Sequence record: KF766125
Reading direction: 5' to 3' (one strand)
DNA: 60,875 nt
From: Shigella phage 75/02 Stx
Below the pieces are notes generated by a model, which was not told the DNA's origin, made no database searches, and was given only the letters and a program-made list of their open reading frames with translations. Below are positions 3,541 to 58,996 of this stretch, piece by piece (the stretch's first letter is position 1; each line of letters opens with the position of its first letter). Both the position numbers and the translations under genes were made by a program.

Positions 3541-5585
3541 GATTTATCACCTCCAAAATTTTCAAGCCTGTTGGCAATCATGATTGCGATATCAGGGATT
3601 GCTGGCGCTGTTGCGACGCATGCAGGGTTTGCGCACAAACCATAGACGGCTGCAAGCACGAGTTGCCTTTTCCAGTCGAAATCTGCTTGCTCTGAATCAT
3701 CATTATTGTCAGAAGCATCACTATCTGGATCGATGTGAACAACCGAATCGTGTTCCTGAGTTGTATCAACAGCATTTTTCTGAATGTATTCATTCTTCAT
3801 TTGTGCCTGGTCATCTCCAGCAGCGGTCTCATTTTCTCCAAAAGTTTCAGCGTAAGTTTCATCTCCCATTACTGGACCACAGTCAGGGCAATGCCCGCCA
3901 CTGTTCTGACCGCATGCGGTGCAAACCTTTTCCACTTCCTGTTGCATTACTGGCCCAGGCTGTTGCTCTTCCGGTCCGTTTTGTTGCGTATCCGGGCTGT
4001 TTTGTTCCACTTTGGATTGATTCTGGTCCTCAGTGTCGCGAGTCTGGATCCCCTTCACCCACTTCGGGTCGGTTGGGTCGCTGATGCCTTCAACGAACTC
4101 CCCACGAGAGGCAGCCAGCAATTTGTCTGCATCGACAGGATTTTTGGGCAAAATGTTTTTCCTGGCTTCATAGAGTTCTGCTCTCAGTTCCTGGTATTTC
4201 GTTTCTACAGATGAGACATTTTCCAGTGATTGCGTGTCCGCATTATGTTTAACTGGAATTTCTTCCACTGATTCAGGCGCTGCCTGTTCATTAGACATTG
4301 CGTCCGATGTTTGCTGCTTTTCTTCATCGTCATGTATCTCTTCTGCTGTTCCGCGCTGCGGCATCGGGGCTGATGAGCGACCGCAGGCAATTTCCACGAT
4401 TTCCGGATCCGGGTTAGAGTGATCGGTTTCGGTCAACACTTTGTTGAGATATTCAGTCACGCGCGCCGGGATAGCCTCAATGCCAATTGGTGCTTCTTTC
4501 ACTGAAGCCACCACAATGGCGCGGGAATAATCCAGCCCACCGGGCATGGCGATGAATTTGTCACGGAAAACAGAAAAGGGCGGTTTATTCTCTGCAACGA
4601 TTTCTTCAACGCGTTTTGCATGTGCAGGGTGCAGGTTATAAATATCCACATCCATTGAACGGGCCAGAACGCCAGTGGCAATGTCTCGCGCCAGTGATGC
4701 CTGATTGTGGGTAAAGCCTTCGCCACGATCGGTAAGATTTCCGCCGCCAGCGTTAGCACCGGAAGGCGTACGGGTGATGCCTGTAACACAATTTCCTTTC
4801 TGCCATTCTTTTGTCAGCAATCCCTGATCCACATAGTCTGTTTTCATCCAGGTGGAGATGAACTTGTCGAATTCGGCCGGGCCGATATGACGGGTTGTTG
4901 AGTGAGAGAATGCCTTTCCAACGGATTGTGCCAGTCTTCCCAGATGATAATTCGTCAGCTTATCCAGTTCTGGATGTGAACGCACAGCAGTAAGCAGGCT
5001 CTGAAGGTAACTGTCTTCTGTGTCCATCTCCAGACGAATCACCTGATTACGTTGTTCTGGTGTGGCGTGATGCCGGTATTTTCCATCTTCATCCTTGCTG
5101 AAGAAGAAGAGGTGAAGGAAGCGATGAGTAAGGCTCAGAGTGGCGACGGGAATTTCACACTCAGAACAGTTATCGTCGCTGTCCGGGGATTCGCTTTTCT
5201 CCACATCATCCGGAATAGTTCCGTCCAGGTTATCGTTGTCATCGCCAGCAGTTGTGGCATCTTCACCGTTGATGTTGTCATCGAAGGGGATAGCCATCAT
5301 GGTGATGCCATCGTTACCGCCTTTTTCATAGCGGTTGCAGAATTCAGTATCAAACACGCCTTCCGGTGGAAGGTCATTCACGACGGGGAAATTTACACGA
5401 ACGGGTTTTTTGAAATCATCCTCGTCGTAGCCTGCATCGTCCATGGCTGCAATGCAGCGGGAAACTGCGACAGAAAGTTTTCTGGTATCAGCCCAGAAAA
5501 AACCGCCTTTGATGCCAAGGCGTTTTCTGACTTTATCGTTTTTTGCTTCGCAGTGCAGTGCAAAAGTTTGTTTATCAGCGCTCAT
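3537..5585 (-). CDS. Large hypothetical early protein, acidic, with C-terminal Cys cluster
   Basis: 682-aa uninterrupted ORF translationally coupled to gam; D/E-rich low-complexity stretches; [16 protein letters not shown] motif; no family recognised. Confidence 0.7.
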
Positions 5586-5663: not shown

Positions 5664-5692
5664 CCGGTAGCCTGCGCTGCCGGATTTTTTAT
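5664..5692 (+). terminator. Hairpin plus T-tract facing into the minus-strand operon
   Basis: ccggtagc/gctgccgg stem (one G-U), loop ctgc, then atttttt. Confidence 0.35.
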
Positions 5693-5693
5693 T

Positions 5694-6080
5694 TCAGTGT
5701 AAGGTTGCTTGGTTTGTTGTTTTGTGAGTTGTTTTTTTCTTTTCATGCTGGCAGTCAGAGCAGTTGCATTCGCCATTTTCTCTGAGAAGTTGAAGTGCCA
5801 GGGTCAGTTCCTGAATTCTTTGTGGATCAATATGACTGTCGACAATTTCAGATGCAGCATGAATATATGGGCTGGTGGTTTTGCAATATAAACCGAAGGA
5901 AACAAAGCGACTGTCTTTATATTCGTTATTTCCAACTTCTGTAAGCACTGAAAAAGAAAATACAAAGTCGATTTTGTATTCTTTGCATATTTTACTGATG
6001 CGTTCTGCAATTTCTTTGAGTTCATTTATTGCATCAGGGCTGGTTTCGGAAAATATTTCATTTTGCGCAAGTTCTTTCAT
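5694..6080 (-). CDS. Hypothetical protein
   Basis: 128-aa ORF in an AT-rich segment of the pL operon; Cys pair CNCSDC near C-terminus. Confidence 0.5.
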   Translation of the reverse strand: MKELAQNEIFSETSPDAINELKEIAERISKICKEYKIDFVFSFSVLTEVGNNEYKDSRFVSFGLYCKTTSPYIHAASEIVDSHIDPQRIQELTLALQLLRENGECNCSDCQHEKKKTTHKTTNQATLH

Positions 6081-16723: not shown

Positions 16724-17052
16724 ACATTAATATTAAATTGATGATTATTAACAACTTAAAACAACGTTAATGTTTTACCTAATAGGGTGTCAACATCTAC
16801 ACAAGGAAATGTTGACACACCACACATTCTGTCGGATACTCTGCGTCAGGTGCTCAAAACACCTTAGCAAGTAGCGGTTACCGCGCCCGACAGACATGCG
16901 GTTTTTTTGTGTCCAGTCTTCTTGGTTTATGACCGGGCGTGCGGCTAATACAATACCAGCAATGGGAATATGCCCGCCGACTACTTGCGGTTTTGAGCGC
17001 CCGGTCACCCTCTCAAAAGGGGTAAATCAAAATATCAAGTAGGACACAAAGC

Positions 17053-43613: not shown

Positions 43614-44348
43614 ATGAAGAGTATAGCAACACTGGTTGTGTGTGCAATCTCCGGGATTGCCTGTGTAAATTTATCTGCACATGCAGCAGAAGGAAACCAT
43701 ACAATTTCTCTGGGGTATGCGCACTTTCAGTTTCCGGGACTGAAGGATTTTGTAAAGGATGCGACTGCTCATAACAGGGAGACTTTCAGTCATTTCGTCA
43801 ACAGAAACTACTTTTCTTCATTGGGCGAATATACAGATGGTCGGGTCAGTGGATATGAAGGCAAGGATAAAAATCCACAGGGCATTAATATCAGGTATCG
43901 CTACGAGATAACGGATGATTTTGGCGTTATCACCTCTTTTACATGGACGCGTTCTCTCACTAACTCACAGACATTTATTGATGTGCAGTCAGCCGATCAT
44001 ACCAGGAAGATTAAGAATCCGGCAGCTTCTGCCAGAACGGATATCAGGGCGAATTACTGGAGTCTGTTAGCGGGGCCTTCATGGCGGGTTAATCAGTACA
44101 TGAGTTTATATGCGATGGCAGGGATGGGCGTTGCTAAAGTTAGCGCTGACCTGAAAATTAAGGACAATATTAACAGTAGTGGCGGATTTTCTGAAAGCAA
44201 CAGCACGAAAAAAACCTCCCTTGCGTGGGCTGCAGGTGCACAGTTTAACCTGAATGAGAGTGTTACACTGGATGTGGCTTACGAAGGTTCCGGCTCTGGC
44301 GACTGGCGCACGAGTGGCGTTACTGCTGGCATTGGCCTGAAATTCTGA
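43614..44348 (+). CDS. lom: Lom/Ail-family outer membrane beta-barrel protein
   Basis: Signal peptide; alternating beta-strand pattern; C-terminal aromatic residue (GIGLKF). Confidence 0.85.
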   Translation: MKSIATLVVCAISGIACVNLSAHAAEGNHTISLGYAHFQFPGLKDFVKDATAHNRETFSHFVNRNYFSSLGEYTDGRVSGYEGKDKNPQGINIRYRYEITDDFGVITSFTWTRSLTNSQTFIDVQSADHTRKIKNPAASARTDIRANYWSLLAGPSWRVNQYMSLYAMAGMGVAKVSADLKIKDNINSSGGFSESNSTKKTSLAWAAGAQFNLNESVTLDVAYEGSGSGDWRTSGVTAGIGLKF

Positions 44349-44371
44349 CCTGTATCCGGTAACCGTTTACT

Positions 44372-44396
44372 ACCCGCTGTGATGGCGGGTTTTTTA
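44372..44396 (+). terminator. Intrinsic terminator after lom
   Basis: acccgc/gcgggt stem, 7-nt loop, T6. Confidence 0.7.
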
Positions 44397-44439
44397 TTGC
44401 CCGTACAGGGCAAAAACCGTAAATTATGCGTGGGTGCCT

Positions 44440-44580
44440 TTCGGCTGATGGCTGGAGGGAGAACCTGAAGGCCTGATGTGGAAAGGCCCCGAGTCAACCT
44501 AACGTTAACCCGAGGCCCTAACACTTCGTACCTTAAGCAAGTAGAAGGTTAGCGCCTCTCTGTAAAAGGAGTCAAGCGCT
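44440..44580. promoter_or_regulatory. hok mRNA leader; expected location of mok frame and Sok antisense RNA
   Basis: Structured GC-rich leader upstream of the hok-like ORF; specific elements not mapped. Confidence 0.3.
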
Positions 44581-44721
44581 ATGTCGCAAAAATCGCTTAT
44601 CACCGTCACAATTTGCATGACGGTTATCTTCACCATCTGGATGTTGCACGGTTCACTGTGTGAGTTCCGGCTGAATTTGTGGGGAGCGGAGTTTGCGGCG
44701 TTCTTACAGTGTAAGCAGTAG
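44581..44721 (+). CDS. Hok/Gef-family type I toxin (46 aa), not in the ORF track
   Basis: MSQKSLITVTICMTVIFTIWMLHGSLCEFRLNLWGAEFAAFLQCKQ: TM helix then SLCE motif and ELAAFLACK-like tail, as in HokA. Confidence 0.8.
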   Translation: MSQKSLITVTICMTVIFTIWMLHGSLCEFRLNLWGAEFAAFLQCKQ

Positions 44722-44730
44722 GAAAACCGC

Positions 44731-44752
44731 GACGGGGACGAAAGTCCCCGTC
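44731..44752 (+). other. Perfect 9-bp stem hairpin at the 3' end of the hok locus
   Basis: gacggggac-gaaa-gtccccgtc. Confidence 0.6.
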
Positions 44753-44801
44753 AACTGGTTGCTGAGGTTCAGCCGATATGGCACCCGTTTCAGGTGAGAG
44801 A

Positions 44802-45179
44802 ATGAACGATAAAATTCTCCGGTATATGCAGCGTGTTGTGAGAAATTCCCGCAACCCTGAATTTATGAATGAAGTTAAAGACGCCTGCCTTAAAAAGCAG
44901 GCGTTTTGTTTTGAGGCACCTGATGGCTTTCTGGTGCTGCGTTCTGTGCTCAGTGCTGATGGTATCCCTTATGTTCTGGTGTTGCTGGGCGTGTGTACGG
45001 GGAGTAACAGCGTTGAGCGTTATCTGCCGGAGGTGAAGACATTAACCCGTCTGGCTGGCGGACGTTGGGCTGAATTTCATACGGCAAGGCGGGGATTTAT
45101 CCGGCTGGGAAAAAGTCTGGGCTTTGAGCGAATGCCGGATGATGAGGATGGCTTCATGGTGTTCAGGATAGCGGTCTGA
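44802..45179 (+). CDS. Hypothetical protein
   Basis: Internal Met with GGTGAGAG SD; 125 aa. Confidence 0.5.
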   Translation: MNDKILRYMQRVVRNSRNPEFMNEVKDACLKKQAFCFEAPDGFLVLRSVLSADGIPYVLVLLGVCTGSNSVERYLPEVKTLTRLAGGRWAEFHTARRGFIRLGKSLGFERMPDDEDGFMVFRIAV

Positions 45180-56366: not shown

Positions 56367-56757
56367 CAGAAATGGCCCCGTACGGAAGTGCGGGGCTGAT
56401 TAAGAAATAAACACACATTAACCTGTAATAACCGGAGCTATTAACATATAGTCAGAAAGAGTATTTCATGTGAGACAGAGAGCCGATTTATGTTTAATGA
56501 AGAAAAAGTTGCGCAAATGGCAGCGTATTTGCTGAAAAAGCATGGCGGATCTATGCGTTTCATTAAGCTGATGTATCTCTCTGACCGCAAAGCAATGGAG
56601 TCTTTAACCGGGAAGGGGAGAGGTTTGAATGCTCCCCCACAATTCCCCGGCATCAAATCTCCATGCAGGTGAACTATTTTACCCCCAGCGGCAAATCGCA
56701 AAACAATCAGTGCGATCGAAATGGCAGCCACTACAATTGCAAATGCTTCAGGCTAGG

Positions 56758-57261
56758 TCATTGGCGTACCTCCTTTGGCGGTTCTGGTAGCGGCATCCAG
56801 AACAAGGCATTCCCTAACCACGATAAAGTGCCGTCGCTCAACTCCACGTATTCCCCTTGTACCTGTCCTGCCATATACTCGCCGTGCTTTGAATAAATTA
56901 AAATCCAATCATCTTGAGCGGGCATTCGCGCACTACAGCTTATCCAACCATCCGGAGTTACCGGCACTGGCTGAGCGGTATAAAGCGGTGTTATATCTGC
57001 CCGAAAATTACATGCTTTATGCAGCCGCACCCACCGTTCGACTTCTGCTTTGTCAGGATACATACCAGTGAACGTGTTATATTCACGGTCAATTTGCGTG
57101 AAGGTTATCTTCCACGCCACCGGCTCTGCCTCAAGCGATGCCAGTGCAATTCGTGCCAGTTCTTCCGCTTCTTCTGCTGGCAGTACAACGTTGCTACCAG
57201 GTCCGTATGTTTCGCGCCACTGCTTGATTGTCAGTAGTCGCTCTTTGGTAATAGTGATCAT
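56758..57261 (-). CDS. DUF551-like phage protein
   Basis: C-terminal WISCSARMPAQDDWILIYSKHGEY...WMPLPEPP. Confidence 0.65.
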   Translation of the reverse strand: MITITKERLLTIKQWRETYGPGSNVVLPAEEAEELARIALASLEAEPVAWKITFTQIDREYNTFTGMYPDKAEVERWVRLHKACNFRADITPLYTAQPVPVTPDGWISCSARMPAQDDWILIYSKHGEYMAGQVQGEYVELSDGTLSWLGNALFWMPLPEPPKEVRQ

Positions 57262-57773
57262 GCCGCGTTTCCTTCTTTCTTATTAACAATTACACCGTCA
57301 TATATTTCATTAAGGTGCCCTCTCAACTCCATGCGCCTTAATGCAGATAACATGTAATCGCATTCAACCTGCTTATTCCCAATAAAAGGTTTATCTTCAG
57401 GGTTACCCCAACAGCAATTCCCCTTGGGCCATCCATGTACTTTCCGTACTCTTCCGTTAACAACGTGAAGTAATCCCCAGCCAGGTGGTAAATCCTCAAT
57501 TGAAATAATTCCCGGCTCACTAATAAAGAATCGCCAGTCGCCCATTCCAAGAGACGGATTTTTACGAAAACGCTTTTTTCTATCTGCCAACAAGTCAGCA
57601 CGAGAACATTTCGCCTCTATCAGGCATGATGCTGAATTTCTGAATCCCATAGCATCTGGCTGTTCTCCGGTACTGGTTACAGCTATAAAGCGGTCATGAA
57701 AACAAACCTTGAACCCGTTGCGCTTAAGGAACTTGTACGCAATCTGACAGAGTTCGCGGTGTGTTAACGCCAT
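57258..57773 (-). CDS. Hypothetical protein with PD-(D/E)xK-like motif
   Basis: Internal Met with AAGGAG SD; ...GEQPDAMGF...SCLIEAKCSRAD resembles the PD...E-x-K nuclease core. Confidence 0.55.
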   Translation of the reverse strand: MALTHRELCQIAYKFLKRNGFKVCFHDRFIAVTSTGEQPDAMGFRNSASCLIEAKCSRADLLADRKKRFRKNPSLGMGDWRFFISEPGIISIEDLPPGWGLLHVVNGRVRKVHGWPKGNCCWGNPEDKPFIGNKQVECDYMLSALRRMELRGHLNEIYDGVIVNKKEGNAA

Positions 57774-57774
57774 A

Positions 57775-58725
57775 TCACTCTCCTTTGATGCGAATGCCTG
57801 CAAGCCAGTTTCTTATGCCGATATATTCAGCGTTCCGGAAACCGCTTTTTACATATATAAATGGCAAGCGAAGATTGTGACCATTGACTGCCAGGTAGTC
57901 TTTACAACCCTGTTCGGTGAAACAGCAGGTAACGAATTCATCAATATCTTTCACAGCAACGCGCCGCCATTTTTCTGGTGGCTCTCGAAAGTTTTCATGA
58001 AGTAGCTCGAGACGACGACTATGGCGTTTATTGGCTTCATTGCCATCTTCGTCAACCCAGACAATCCGGTCATGGTCATAATCAGCATCAACAACGATTT
58101 CGCGCTTTTGATACACACAAAACATGGGATCTGACGTTATTCGATTGTCCTGTGTTCGAATATTTTCACCGATGATGCCAAACGAATCTGGTGCAGATTT
58201 TGTCTGCATCTCTTCGATACGTTCAGCCATCGCAGCACACTCTTCAAAGTTGCTTAATGCTTTTCGCTCCCATTCGGCGCATTGTTTTTCCAGTTCTGCT
58301 ATGCGCTTACTTCCATCCGCGATTACTCCCTCGTAATATTCACGCTGCTCGTTGAGTTTTGATTTTGCTGCTTCAAGCTCAACGCGCAGCTTCCCTACCG
58401 TAAGCGCAATATCCTCGTTCTCCTGGTCGCGGCGTTTGATGTATTGCTGGTTTCTTTCCCGTTCATCCAGCAGTGCCAGCACGGTAGCCGGATTGGCTGC
58501 GGCGATGAATTCAGCATTGGCCTGCTGTTCCATTTGGAAATCTTCATCGAAACCGCTTTCAGGATGTGCTCCTTCAATTCTGCAAATGGGAATATATCCA
58601 GCAGCCTCGCGATGAATTAGTGCATCATCACCATCAAATCGGTTCTCTCCATATTCGAGCGACCACTCACCACGCGTTGCTTTTTCTGCCTTTTCACGCA
58701 GTACCTGATAGTTAATCTCGCTCAT
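57775..58725 (-). CDS. ead/Ea22-like protein
   Basis: Coiled-coil middle region and C-terminal domain reminiscent of lambda Ea22-like proteins. Confidence 0.65.
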   Translation of the reverse strand: MSEINYQVLREKAEKATRGEWSLEYGENRFDGDDALIHREAAGYIPICRIEGAHPESGFDEDFQMEQQANAEFIAAANPATVLALLDERERNQQYIKRRDQENEDIALTVGKLRVELEAAKSKLNEQREYYEGVIADGSKRIAELEKQCAEWERKALSNFEECAAMAERIEEMQTKSAPDSFGIIGENIRTQDNRITSDPMFCVYQKREIVVDADYDHDRIVWVDEDGNEANKRHSRRLELLHENFREPPEKWRRVAVKDIDEFVTCCFTEQGCKDYLAVNGHNLRLPFIYVKSGFRNAEYIGIRNWLAGIRIKGE

Positions 58726-58996
58726 TTTTCTCTTCGCTCCGGTATACAAGAATTACAACGTCACCTCTGCTAATTACGCGAGCTGGATCTCCTGGCTCCA
58801 TGCTGTCAATCCCGAAGGCTTCGGAAAACGCATTCATTGCCTTCTGGCGTTGATCCTGCTTACGGCATTTATTCCATTTTTTCAGTAACAACAGCGATAG
58901 CCACCGCCCGGCGCAGAACATAATGTAAAAATAACCAAGAAGCGCCAGACCTGTGTTGAGGGCCGTATCGATCGTTATAGTGGTGTCTATGCTCAC
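58712..58996 (-). CDS. Hypothetical small membrane protein
   Basis: 94-aa ORF with N-terminal hydrophobic segment; coupled to neighbours. Confidence 0.4.
   Translation of the reverse strand: MSIDTTITIDTALNTGLALLGYFYIMFCAGRWLSLLLLKKWNKCRKQDQRQKAMNAFSEAFGIDSMEPGDPARVISRGDVVILVYRSEEKNERD

Follow-up and report, generated by a model that had tools for sequence, protein, structure and literature searches.

A probable hok/sok-type toxin-antitoxin cassette without a mok frame in the late region of a Shiga toxin-converting phage

Among the closest known systems to the locus considered here is hok/mok/sok (parB) of plasmid R1, the paradigm of type I toxin-antitoxin loci. The R1 hok mRNA carries a metastable hairpin, the alternative pairings of the element tac with fbi (fold-back inhibitory) and with ucb, a stem between the Shine-Dalgarno sequence (SD) and dcb, and a protective stem at the end of the trimmed mRNA. 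In this system, Hok is synthesized only if mok is translated as far as the hok SD. We describe what is very probably a hok/sok-type type I toxin-antitoxin cassette of ~375 bp (44412-44786) in the late region of Shigella phage 75/02 Stx, an Stx1-converting, 933W-like phage (sequence record KF766125; the window is the whole analysed stretch of 60,875 nucleotides, and coordinates are counted from its first letter). The cluster of loci to which it belongs keeps every element of the hok RNA switch except mok, and offers a natural experiment on which parts of the R1 model can be dispensed with.

The window locus and R1 have in common a small membrane toxin of the Hok/Gef family and a long structured leader. 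They also share the tac/fbi and tac/ucb pairings, a nascent 5' hairpin, pairing of a GAGG box with ucb, a GAGGC/GCCUC target hairpin and a stable 3' stem-loop. The ~60-nt cis-antisense RNA predicted here would likewise start from a promoter that overlaps the hok SD region, and its -10 element aligns with that of R1 as TA(A/T)CCT. In contrast to R1, the window locus has neither a mok frame nor a mok start codon, and hence lacks translational coupling; its leader is ~20-24 nt shorter, its peptide has 46 instead of 52 residues with ~34% identity to R1 Hok over 32 residues, and its leader scores 33 bits with the Rfam family RF01794 compared with 87 for R1. The window type is found in prophages and islands, whereas R1 hok is on a plasmid.

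The one experimentally studied hok module of these phages is hokW-sokW of Sakai prophage 5 (Sp5), which encodes the 51-aa HokW (Takada et al. 2021, PMC8621323). Upon induction of Sp5 the sokW RNA was lost and Hok preceded the endolysin, and a deletion halved phage release (PMC8621323). hokW-sokW is, like the window locus, a hok-family type I module of the same group of Stx phages and sets a precedent for the release of hok at induction. It is nevertheless a separate locus ~13 kb away on the other strand, of the hokC/gef type and with a 70-codon mok-hok frame.

The gene in the window has been captured by a survey of Hok proteins (Escalera-Maurer et al., bioRxiv 10.1101/2025.08.07.668861) as entry 72_1589 of cluster 72, a 'high-abundance cluster'. 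The surveyed peptide is identical to that of the window, and the tested allele differs by synonymous changes. It was cloned as pAZ3::72_1589 and assayed for toxicity along with other constructs, 42 of 45 of which were toxic. Since the only constructs named as non-toxic are three others (19_179, 60_1482 and 69_1540), 72_1589 is by implication toxic on over-expression. The survey dealt with coding sequences only and explicitly left Mok, Sok and the mRNA elements unanalysed. In RefSeq, the gene is annotated in E. coli genomes as 'Hok/Gef family protein'. Its labels in several phage records are 'small toxic polypeptide', 'host toxic membrane protein' and 'MokW-like host killing'; in those of 933W and VT2-Sakai it goes unannotated. 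The gene, its family and, by implication, its toxicity are already public in databases and the survey preprint, and the finding of the gene itself is not new. Our literature searches on the locus, on hok without mok and on a small RNA at this place returned nothing beyond the survey preprint, and in the literature searched we found no description of the full RNA anatomy of cluster 72, of its Sok-like gene or of the consistent lack of mok.

The toxin gene is a short open reading frame (ORF) in which a first, sequence-only reading of the window had recognized the Hok/Gef signature:

44581-44721, plus strand: hok coding sequence (CDS), 46 codons and the stop, identified by Pfam, PHROG, alignment and the ratio of nonsynonymous to synonymous substitution rates (dN/dS).

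The 46-aa peptide (MSQKSLITVTICMTVIFTIWMLHGSLCEFRLNLWGAEFAAFLQCKQ) matches the Pfam family PF01848 HOK_GEF with 33.2 bits (E 4e-8, profile positions 6-42 of 42), above the curated gathering cut-off of 22 bits, and PHROG 251 ('MokW-like host killing') with E 2.8e-24. It has a hydrophobic N-terminal helix, C12-x-T14, L26-C27-E28, E37 and the tail AEFAAFLQCK; the residues of the family logo that we used as a yardstick are M1, C16, T18, L30, C31, E32 and E41. A C-terminal cysteine in the context A-x-x-x-C is also found in K-12 HokB. Searching a protein collection with the peptide returned 56 relatives from Escherichia, Shigella and Salmonella, the complete ones nearly all of 46 aa and the named ones all labelled 'Hok/Gef family protein'. 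A genome scan added homologues in E. albertii and Citrobacter braakii, so that the peptide is conserved across Escherichia, Shigella, Salmonella and Citrobacter. Among 31 aligned homologues, C27 (of the S-L-C-E motif), C44 and AFLQCK are invariant, L26, E28 and E37 are kept in 90% or more, and most have C12 and T14. The median pairwise dN/dS of the homologues is 0.24, which is a conservative estimate because RNA structure constrains the synonymous sites too. The hok SD (AAGGAG) is 8-9 nt from the AUG, and a strong SD with this spacing is retained in the great majority of copies. These sequence comparisons support the assignment of the ORF as a Hok/Gef-family toxin gene.

Homology between copies in different genomic contexts starts near 44412 and stops at 44786 in every case, which delimits a unit of ~375 bp. 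The sequence-only reading had described a hok/sok-type locus at 44430-44760, as a moron, between the terminator of lom and the next late gene. The features that it named are all in the sequence, and the ORF does lie in the 453-bp gap between lom and this gene; its span is too narrow and misses fbi (44769-44786) and the hok promoter, because the unit is wider. The moron description agrees with the occurrence of the same unit, with equally sharp boundaries, elsewhere: relatives with 61-85% DNA identity occupy quite different genomic places, namely after ogr at the ends of P2-like prophages (in UTI89 and an enterotoxigenic E. coli strain), beside the urease island of O157, and where Salmonella prophages meet the host sequence, following tail-fibre genes, in some cases as tandem pairs. 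Judged by these alignments, 44412-44786 is a self-contained cassette as large as a classical hok/sok locus. It is matched in 1675 of 5426 complete E. coli genomes, in up to 8 places per genome, and 14 of 2547 places are plasmid-borne. In two Salmonella sequences (L020, 2501-2641 and 2991-3131; L021, 2501-2641 and 2995-3135), the tandem copies lie ~490 bp from one another and share 81-93% identity.

The elements that we identify on the sense strand, most of them by folding of the window RNA and by structural alignment of homologues, are as follows:

44397-44425, plus strand: candidate hok promoter, with -35 TTGCCC (44397-44402), a 17-bp spacer and -10 TAAATT (44420-44425); the transcript would start at G 44432, seven bases past the -10.
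44432-44786, plus strand: predicted full-length hok mRNA of 355 nt, coinciding with the core of the conserved unit, its ends placed by analogy with R1 hok.
44432-44448, plus strand: tac, the 5' end (GGGUGCCUUUCGGCUGA), with three alternative partners (fbi, ucb and the adjacent 5' segment).
44432-44466, plus strand: 5' hairpin that would sequester tac in the nascent transcript, an analogue of the metastable hairpin, from folds of the first 40 nt.
44480-44490, plus strand: ucb (GGAAAGGCCCC), partner of tac once the 3' end has been trimmed and of the GAGG box in the closed form.
44512-44515, plus strand: GAGG box, at the position of the R1 mok SD and without a start codon after it; invariant in the alignments.
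44512-44558, plus strand: antisense-target hairpin, with a GAGGC...GCCUC closing stem and a CUAAC/GUUAG inner stem; part of the RNAalifold consensus.
44558-44571, plus strand: hairpin of the anti-SD CUCU (44558-44561) with GGAG (44568-44571) of the hok SD; this helix is 87.5% paired.
44686-44701, plus strand: segment within the CDS (codons of AEFAAF) that pairs with the start-codon region 44581-44596.
44726-44760, plus strand: 3' stem-loop, with an outer helix AACC.../...GGUU around a 9-bp core (GACGGGGAC/GUCCCCGUC) and a GAAA loop, corresponding to the terminal stem of the truncated hok mRNA.
44769-44786, plus strand: fbi, with UCAGCCG, AUAU and GGCACCC in this order, complementary to tac.

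The sequence-only reading had noted a long structured leader and suggested folding the RNA and searching the leader for fold-back elements, a Sok promoter and a mok frame. The leader is 149 nt long, and the predicted transcript folds with a minimum free energy (MFE) of -153.4 kcal/mol (z = -6.4), which none of 100 shuffled sequences equalled. The RNAalifold consensus of 16 copies contains 75 pairs, 21 of them with compensatory changes, and holds the tac/fbi pairing, the GAGGC/GCCUC hairpin, the pairing of the AUG with the CDS and the 3' stem-loop. The -10 of the hok promoter aligns with a conserved TAGATT/TAAATT of the homologues; the -35 lies outside the conserved module.

Fold-back elements are present. 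The 5' end (GGGUGCC..CGGCUGA) pairs with UCAGCCG..GGCACCC of fbi in two helices of 7 bp and 8 bp in the window, and the window RNA folds in this way on its own. Across the 16 sequences the two helices are paired in 94.5% and 78.4% of the alignment cells, with compensatory changes at six pairs; overall, 81% of the cells are paired, compared with 31-47% in slid controls. The distal helix covaries at three pairs (CG:9/UA:6, GC:9/CG:6 and AU:8/GC:6). The GGCACCC of fbi is kept in 14 of 16 homologues; the O157-island copy differs and one extract ends early. Cross-context homology ends immediately 3' of fbi, and no conserved terminator follows it across the contexts examined.

When the RNA is cut after the 3' stem-loop, the predicted MFE structure shifts: tac pairs with ucb and the target hairpin forms. 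In the alignment, the tac/ucb helix is paired in 90% of the cells and the helix of the target hairpin in 86%; taken together they reach 87.6% compared with 33-53% in slid controls, and none of 500 shuffles reached their covariation score. Columns 35-36 of tac covary with both partners, that is with ucb (CG:7/UA:7 and CG:7/GC:7) and with fbi (CG:9/UA:6 and GC:9/CG:6). The loop of the target hairpin is complementary to the 5' tail of the predicted Sok-like RNA, and its stem is also paired in the Rfam alignment of RF01794. For the window RNA, the predicted probability that the SD is unpaired is 0.01 in the full-length form, 0.35 in the trimmed form and 0.01 in the trimmed form with the Sok target blocked.

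The third partner of tac is the adjacent segment with which it forms the 5' hairpin. In all 15 homologues that retain the 5' end, the first 40 nt form this hairpin, with energies from -14.8 to -20.0 kcal/mol and covarying variants of the stem (CGGCU/GGCUG, CGAC/GUCG and CGAU/GUCG). One Salmonella copy (L017, ~2349-2400) has other sequence at the 5' end of tac (GCCTCCGCCGCC...), with fbi, the Sok promoter and the hok frame kept, and is possibly rearranged or decaying.

The pairing of the start-codon region with the AEFAAF codons (RNAalifold columns 183-198 with 291-306) is nearly invariant, with one-sided GU/GC changes, and is present in every MFE fold. Six pairs of the 3' stem-loop (columns 337-351 with 363-379) change in a compensatory way, among them GC:13/CG:3 and GC:12/AU:4. 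The truncated mRNA of R1 is lost when the corresponding 3' stem is mutated. The core of the stem-loop is the perfect 9-bp hairpin that the sequence-only reading had pointed out 3' of the ORF (44731-44739 with 44744-44752). We considered this hairpin as a terminator of hok and rejected it: no T-run follows it on the plus strand, it is terminator-like only on the minus strand, and it aligns with the stem at the processed end of the R1 mRNA.

The window differs from 933W and phi346 at only three positions in 44340-44800 (44460, 44499 and 44742), and other Stx phages with 99.3% identity presumably share these differences from the window. All three lie in predicted loops, those of the 5' hairpin, of the Sok/target hairpin and of the 3' stem-loop, where the tetraloop is GAAA or GAGA; 29% of all bases are unpaired in the predicted fold.

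A candidate Sok promoter is likewise recognizable in the leader. The features of the opposite strand are:

44546-44575, minus strand: Sok-type promoter, with -35 TTGACT (44575-44570), an 18-bp spacer and -10 TAACCT (44551-44546).
44479-44539, minus strand: predicted Sok-like RNA of ~57-61 nt, beginning with ~20 single-stranded nt as 5' tail, followed by a 16-bp hairpin and UUUCC; both ends are predicted.

All 16 homologues keep the antisense -10, 14 of them as TAACCT and 2 as TATCCT, and TATCCT is also what we read from the sequence of the R1-type locus at the aligned place. The predicted Sok-like RNA has an MFE of -27.9 kcal/mol (z = -3.4). Its hairpin is more stable on the antisense than on the sense strand, both in the window (-27.4 vs -11.6 kcal/mol) and in 16 of 16 homologues (means of -22.7 vs -14.4 kcal/mol). 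The basal 8 bp are 100% paired, including one invariant U·G, and the closing pair covaries (GC:10/AU:5). The hairpin is strand-specific because three positions that are G·U on the antisense strand are C·A on the sense strand. Such asymmetry between the strands is hard to explain unless a minus-strand RNA is the selected molecule. Together with the match of the toxin to its family, the Sok-type promoter and hairpin support the proposal of the sequence-only reading that this is a type I toxin locus of the hok/sok type.

In the prediction, ~26 nt separate the end of the Sok duplex from the hok SD downstream. Direct occlusion of the SD of the toxin frame is therefore impossible, and in the model repression by Sok must act via cleavage, refolding or the loss of a standby or entry site. 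In tisB/istR-1 and zorO/orzO, the antisense RNA binds well upstream of the ribosome-binding site of the toxin. These systems offer a mechanistic analogy only; their toxins and RNAs are unrelated to those of the window.

The search for a mok frame was negative. In the window, stops interrupt each of the three frames between -60 and the hok ATG, whatever the start codon, and the same is true of 10 of the 16 other copies examined, among which there is no conserved leader ORF. Neither in the window nor in most copies does a leader frame beginning with ATG, GTG or TTG extend to the hok SD. At -58, the position of the mok start, ATG is replaced by ACT; the controls (hokC, hokB and the R1-type locus) have ATG at -57/-58 and an open frame across the hok start. 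Insertions and deletions in the leader are not multiples of three. The E. albertii copy (L013) is the only one with an ATG-initiated frame across hok, of 79 codons from 103 nt upstream of hok to +134; the same ATG exists in the E. coli-type copies, where early stops close the frame. The isolated open leader frames, in E. albertii and in one Salmonella copy, look accidental. The GAGG box, which is the mok SD in R1, here also takes part in the antisense hairpin and in the stem that closes the target hairpin.

RF01794 is named 'sok' and matches the sense strand of the hok leader, with a gathering score of 59 bits. At gathering threshold, Rfam gives no match at the hok locus. A permissive search of 551 nt aligns the family end to end with 44432-44594 (33.1 bits, E 9e-6). 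Sister copies score 44-55 bits, in contrast to the K-12 loci hokC (118) and hokB (110), which have mok frames and pass the gathering score, and to the 87 bits of the R1-type locus. Since these scores are below the gathering threshold, the leader is a divergent relative of canonical hok leaders, of a kind that would escape Rfam-based annotation. Conserved hok regulatory elements, on whose presence in the leader the sequence-only reading depended, are mostly in place; mok is absent and the Rfam match is below gathering level.

By analogy with R1, the locus may work as follows. A weak constitutive promoter would give rise to an mRNA of ~355 nt, whose 5' hairpin hides tac during synthesis. The finished mRNA would be locked by the tac/fbi pairing, with SD and AUG paired and the antisense target hidden. 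Slow 3' trimming to the stem-loop at 44726-44760 would remove fbi, whereupon tac could pair again with ucb (44480-44490) and the GAGGC/GCCUC target hairpin could form. The Sok-like RNA of ~60 nt (from 44539 to 44479) would bind the trimmed form and bring about its inactivation or cleavage. Once this short-lived antisense RNA is lost, Hok would be made and would depolarize the inner membrane. We infer that the role of the cassette is prophage addiction or stabilization.

R1 Hok needs mok, and the cluster is without it, so that Hok must here be initiated directly at its own SD. A tentative extension of the model, which we regard as quite possible without giving it the better chance, is that the cluster represents a natural mok-independent version of hok/sok in which GAGG has become a structural decoy and a switch between this decoy and the CCUCUC box governs the hok SD; in Stx phages, it would also be wired to induction through head-on late transcription. 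In the open, trimmed mRNA, the decoy GAGG would pair with the CCUCUC box and free the hok SD for direct translation. The antisense RNA, by binding ~26 nt upstream of the SD, would bring about recapture of the decoy, and the CCUCUC box would return to the hok SD.

Several observations weigh against the proposed cassette and its switch. Both the hok and the Sok promoter match just 8 of 12 consensus positions, and a promoter scan with a threshold of 9 of 12 called neither of them, be it here or in two relatives. Only UUUCC, a weak terminator tail, follows the Sok hairpin. Across copies, the probability that the SD is unpaired in the trimmed form ranges from 0.00 to 0.36, and the rise on trimming is modest and inconsistent. 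Without mok, the opening of the paired AUG region has no explanation. Independent compensatory events are few, because the variation comes mostly from 2-3 clades (mainly the E. coli type and the Salmonella type). The RF01794 score is below the gathering threshold here and in the sister copies. The peptide falls short of the NCBIfam cut-offs for HokA of K-12, its best match there (NF007290, 38.4 bits, cut-off 89), and for the Hok family toxin (NF007279, 22.7 bits, cut-off 73; R1 Hok scores 126.4), which is why it bears the generic RefSeq name. Neither the hok mRNA species nor the antisense RNA of this locus is reported in the literature searched.

The weak promoter matches, the Rfam and NCBIfam scores below threshold and the loss of a mok frame that is needed for Hok translation in R1 are also what one would see in a silent or decaying relic, in which the toxin frame survives in a cassette without expression or regulation, as in several K-12 hok loci; at least one relative, the Salmonella copy L017, lacks the 5' tac end. 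We nevertheless judge a relic improbable. The peptide is under purifying selection, compensatory changes maintain several alternative helices, the antisense -10 is kept in every homologue and the great majority of copies have a strong, well-spaced SD. Moreover, the survey text implies that the identical peptide is toxic, and the unit is present in almost a third of the complete E. coli genomes with up to eight copies in each. The same conservation bears on the suggestion that a small ORF and a hairpin have arisen by chance in an intergenic spacer. Many short ORFs do occur on both strands here, but the Pfam E value, the conservation across genera, the dN/dS and the z score of the structure leave such a coincidence a vanishingly small probability. 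Only marginally less remote is the idea that the locus is the published hokW-sokW of Sakai prophage 5 and 933W (Takada et al. 2021), so that everything about it would be known. The phages are of the same family and the PHROG/Pharokka label 'MokW-like host killing' invites the identification. HokW is however a different peptide of 51 aa (MKQQKAM...DYESEK), the hokW primers and the 5' sequence of its mRNA have no match in the window even with 3 mismatches, and hokW is found on the other strand at 57.5-57.8 kb of VT2-Sakai and at ~58.7 kb of 933W, ~13 kb from lom. tblastn finds only one hok in the window. With peptide, primers and map position all different, we reject the identity with hokW-sokW.

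The most serious rival, although we consider it rather unlikely, is that the cassette has mainly an accessory function in lysis or late gene expression, with Hok made or unleashed by Q-antiterminated late transcription and speeding up lysis and the release of toxin and phage. The cassette is co-directional with the late operon (Q, stx, lysis S/R, head, tail, lom, orf66-71) and lies inside it, so that antiterminated late transcripts must cross it and meet the Sok promoter head-on. The Stx phages among the records listed with both flanks all keep the cassette, and the behaviour of hokW in Sp5 at induction, described above, would be matched. On the other hand, P2-like and other prophages carry the same cassette at their outer ends, and a chromosomal island has it too, in places with no late transcript through it. 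A lysis role is compatible with the addiction cassette that we favour and does not exclude it: late transcripts reading through against the Sok promoter could reduce the antisense RNA and trigger Hok at induction, as reported for hokW-sokW. By its position in the late operon the cassette could affect the timing of lysis, the release of Shiga toxin or the stability of the prophage.

The flanks of the cassette in the window are:

43614-44348, plus strand: lom (Pfam Ail_Lom), followed by a terminator at 44372-44390 with a T-run.
44802-45179, plus strand: next late-region gene, homologue of 933W L0129 and VT2-Sakai orf66 (PHROG 610).

The downstream gene is annotated from the ATG at 44778, which would overlap the fbi element. 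Its true start is probably the ATG at 44802, because the PHROG 610 profile aligns from residue 9; this ATG is preceded by AGGTGAGAG. Inside the downstream CDS, at 44881-44910 on the plus strand, there is a terminator-like hairpin with a T-run (GCCTGCCTTAAAAAGCAGGCGTTTTGTTTTG) that is mirrored on the minus strand; it could end transcripts begun at the hok promoter, or be a chance match. We surveyed the two flanks in sequence records (a listing of 24 out of 40 rows; 111 records match the query over at least 80% of its length). The records listed with both lom and L0129 flanks span ~1196-1201 bp, equal to the 826-nt query plus the 375-bp cassette, and none of those listed is an Stx phage in which lom and the next gene are adjacent without the cassette.

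The window is a short-tailed Shiga-toxin phage similar to 933W and VT2-Sakai, and its late region is 93-99% identical to VT2-Sakai. The genes at 20915-21862 and 21872-22141 we take, from their ORF translations, to be stx1A and stx1B and not stx2; the stx2 region of VT2-Sakai has no megablast match in the window. At 56571-58676 (~56.6-58.7 kb), unrelated ORFs take the place of the right-arm segment of VT2-Sakai and 933W that contains hokW/mokW-sokW and a YgiW-like gene; the minus-strand ORFs 56758-57261, 57258-57803 and 57775-58749 are examples. Because the hokW segment is replaced, the hok next to lom is the only hok of the window phage. Stx phages can in turn carry two different hok modules, one of which has been studied, as follows from the unannotated hok next to lom in the 933W and VT2-Sakai records.

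Away from the cassette, Rfam matches at gathering level in the window are STnc100 at 22220-22418 (plus strand, 141 bits), the anti-sRNA AgvB at 22414-22473 (minus strand, 56.6 bits, just above the Rfam threshold) and three copies of sRNA-Xcc1 with 71-80 bits at 16931-17014 (plus strand), 59926-60011 (minus strand) and 60463-60551 (minus strand). About 2 kb from the cassette copy of the O157 island (L004), Rfam matches STAXI with 134 bits and EFASI with 48.9 bits, the latter below its gathering score (L004 coordinates 5059-5210 and 5686-5839).

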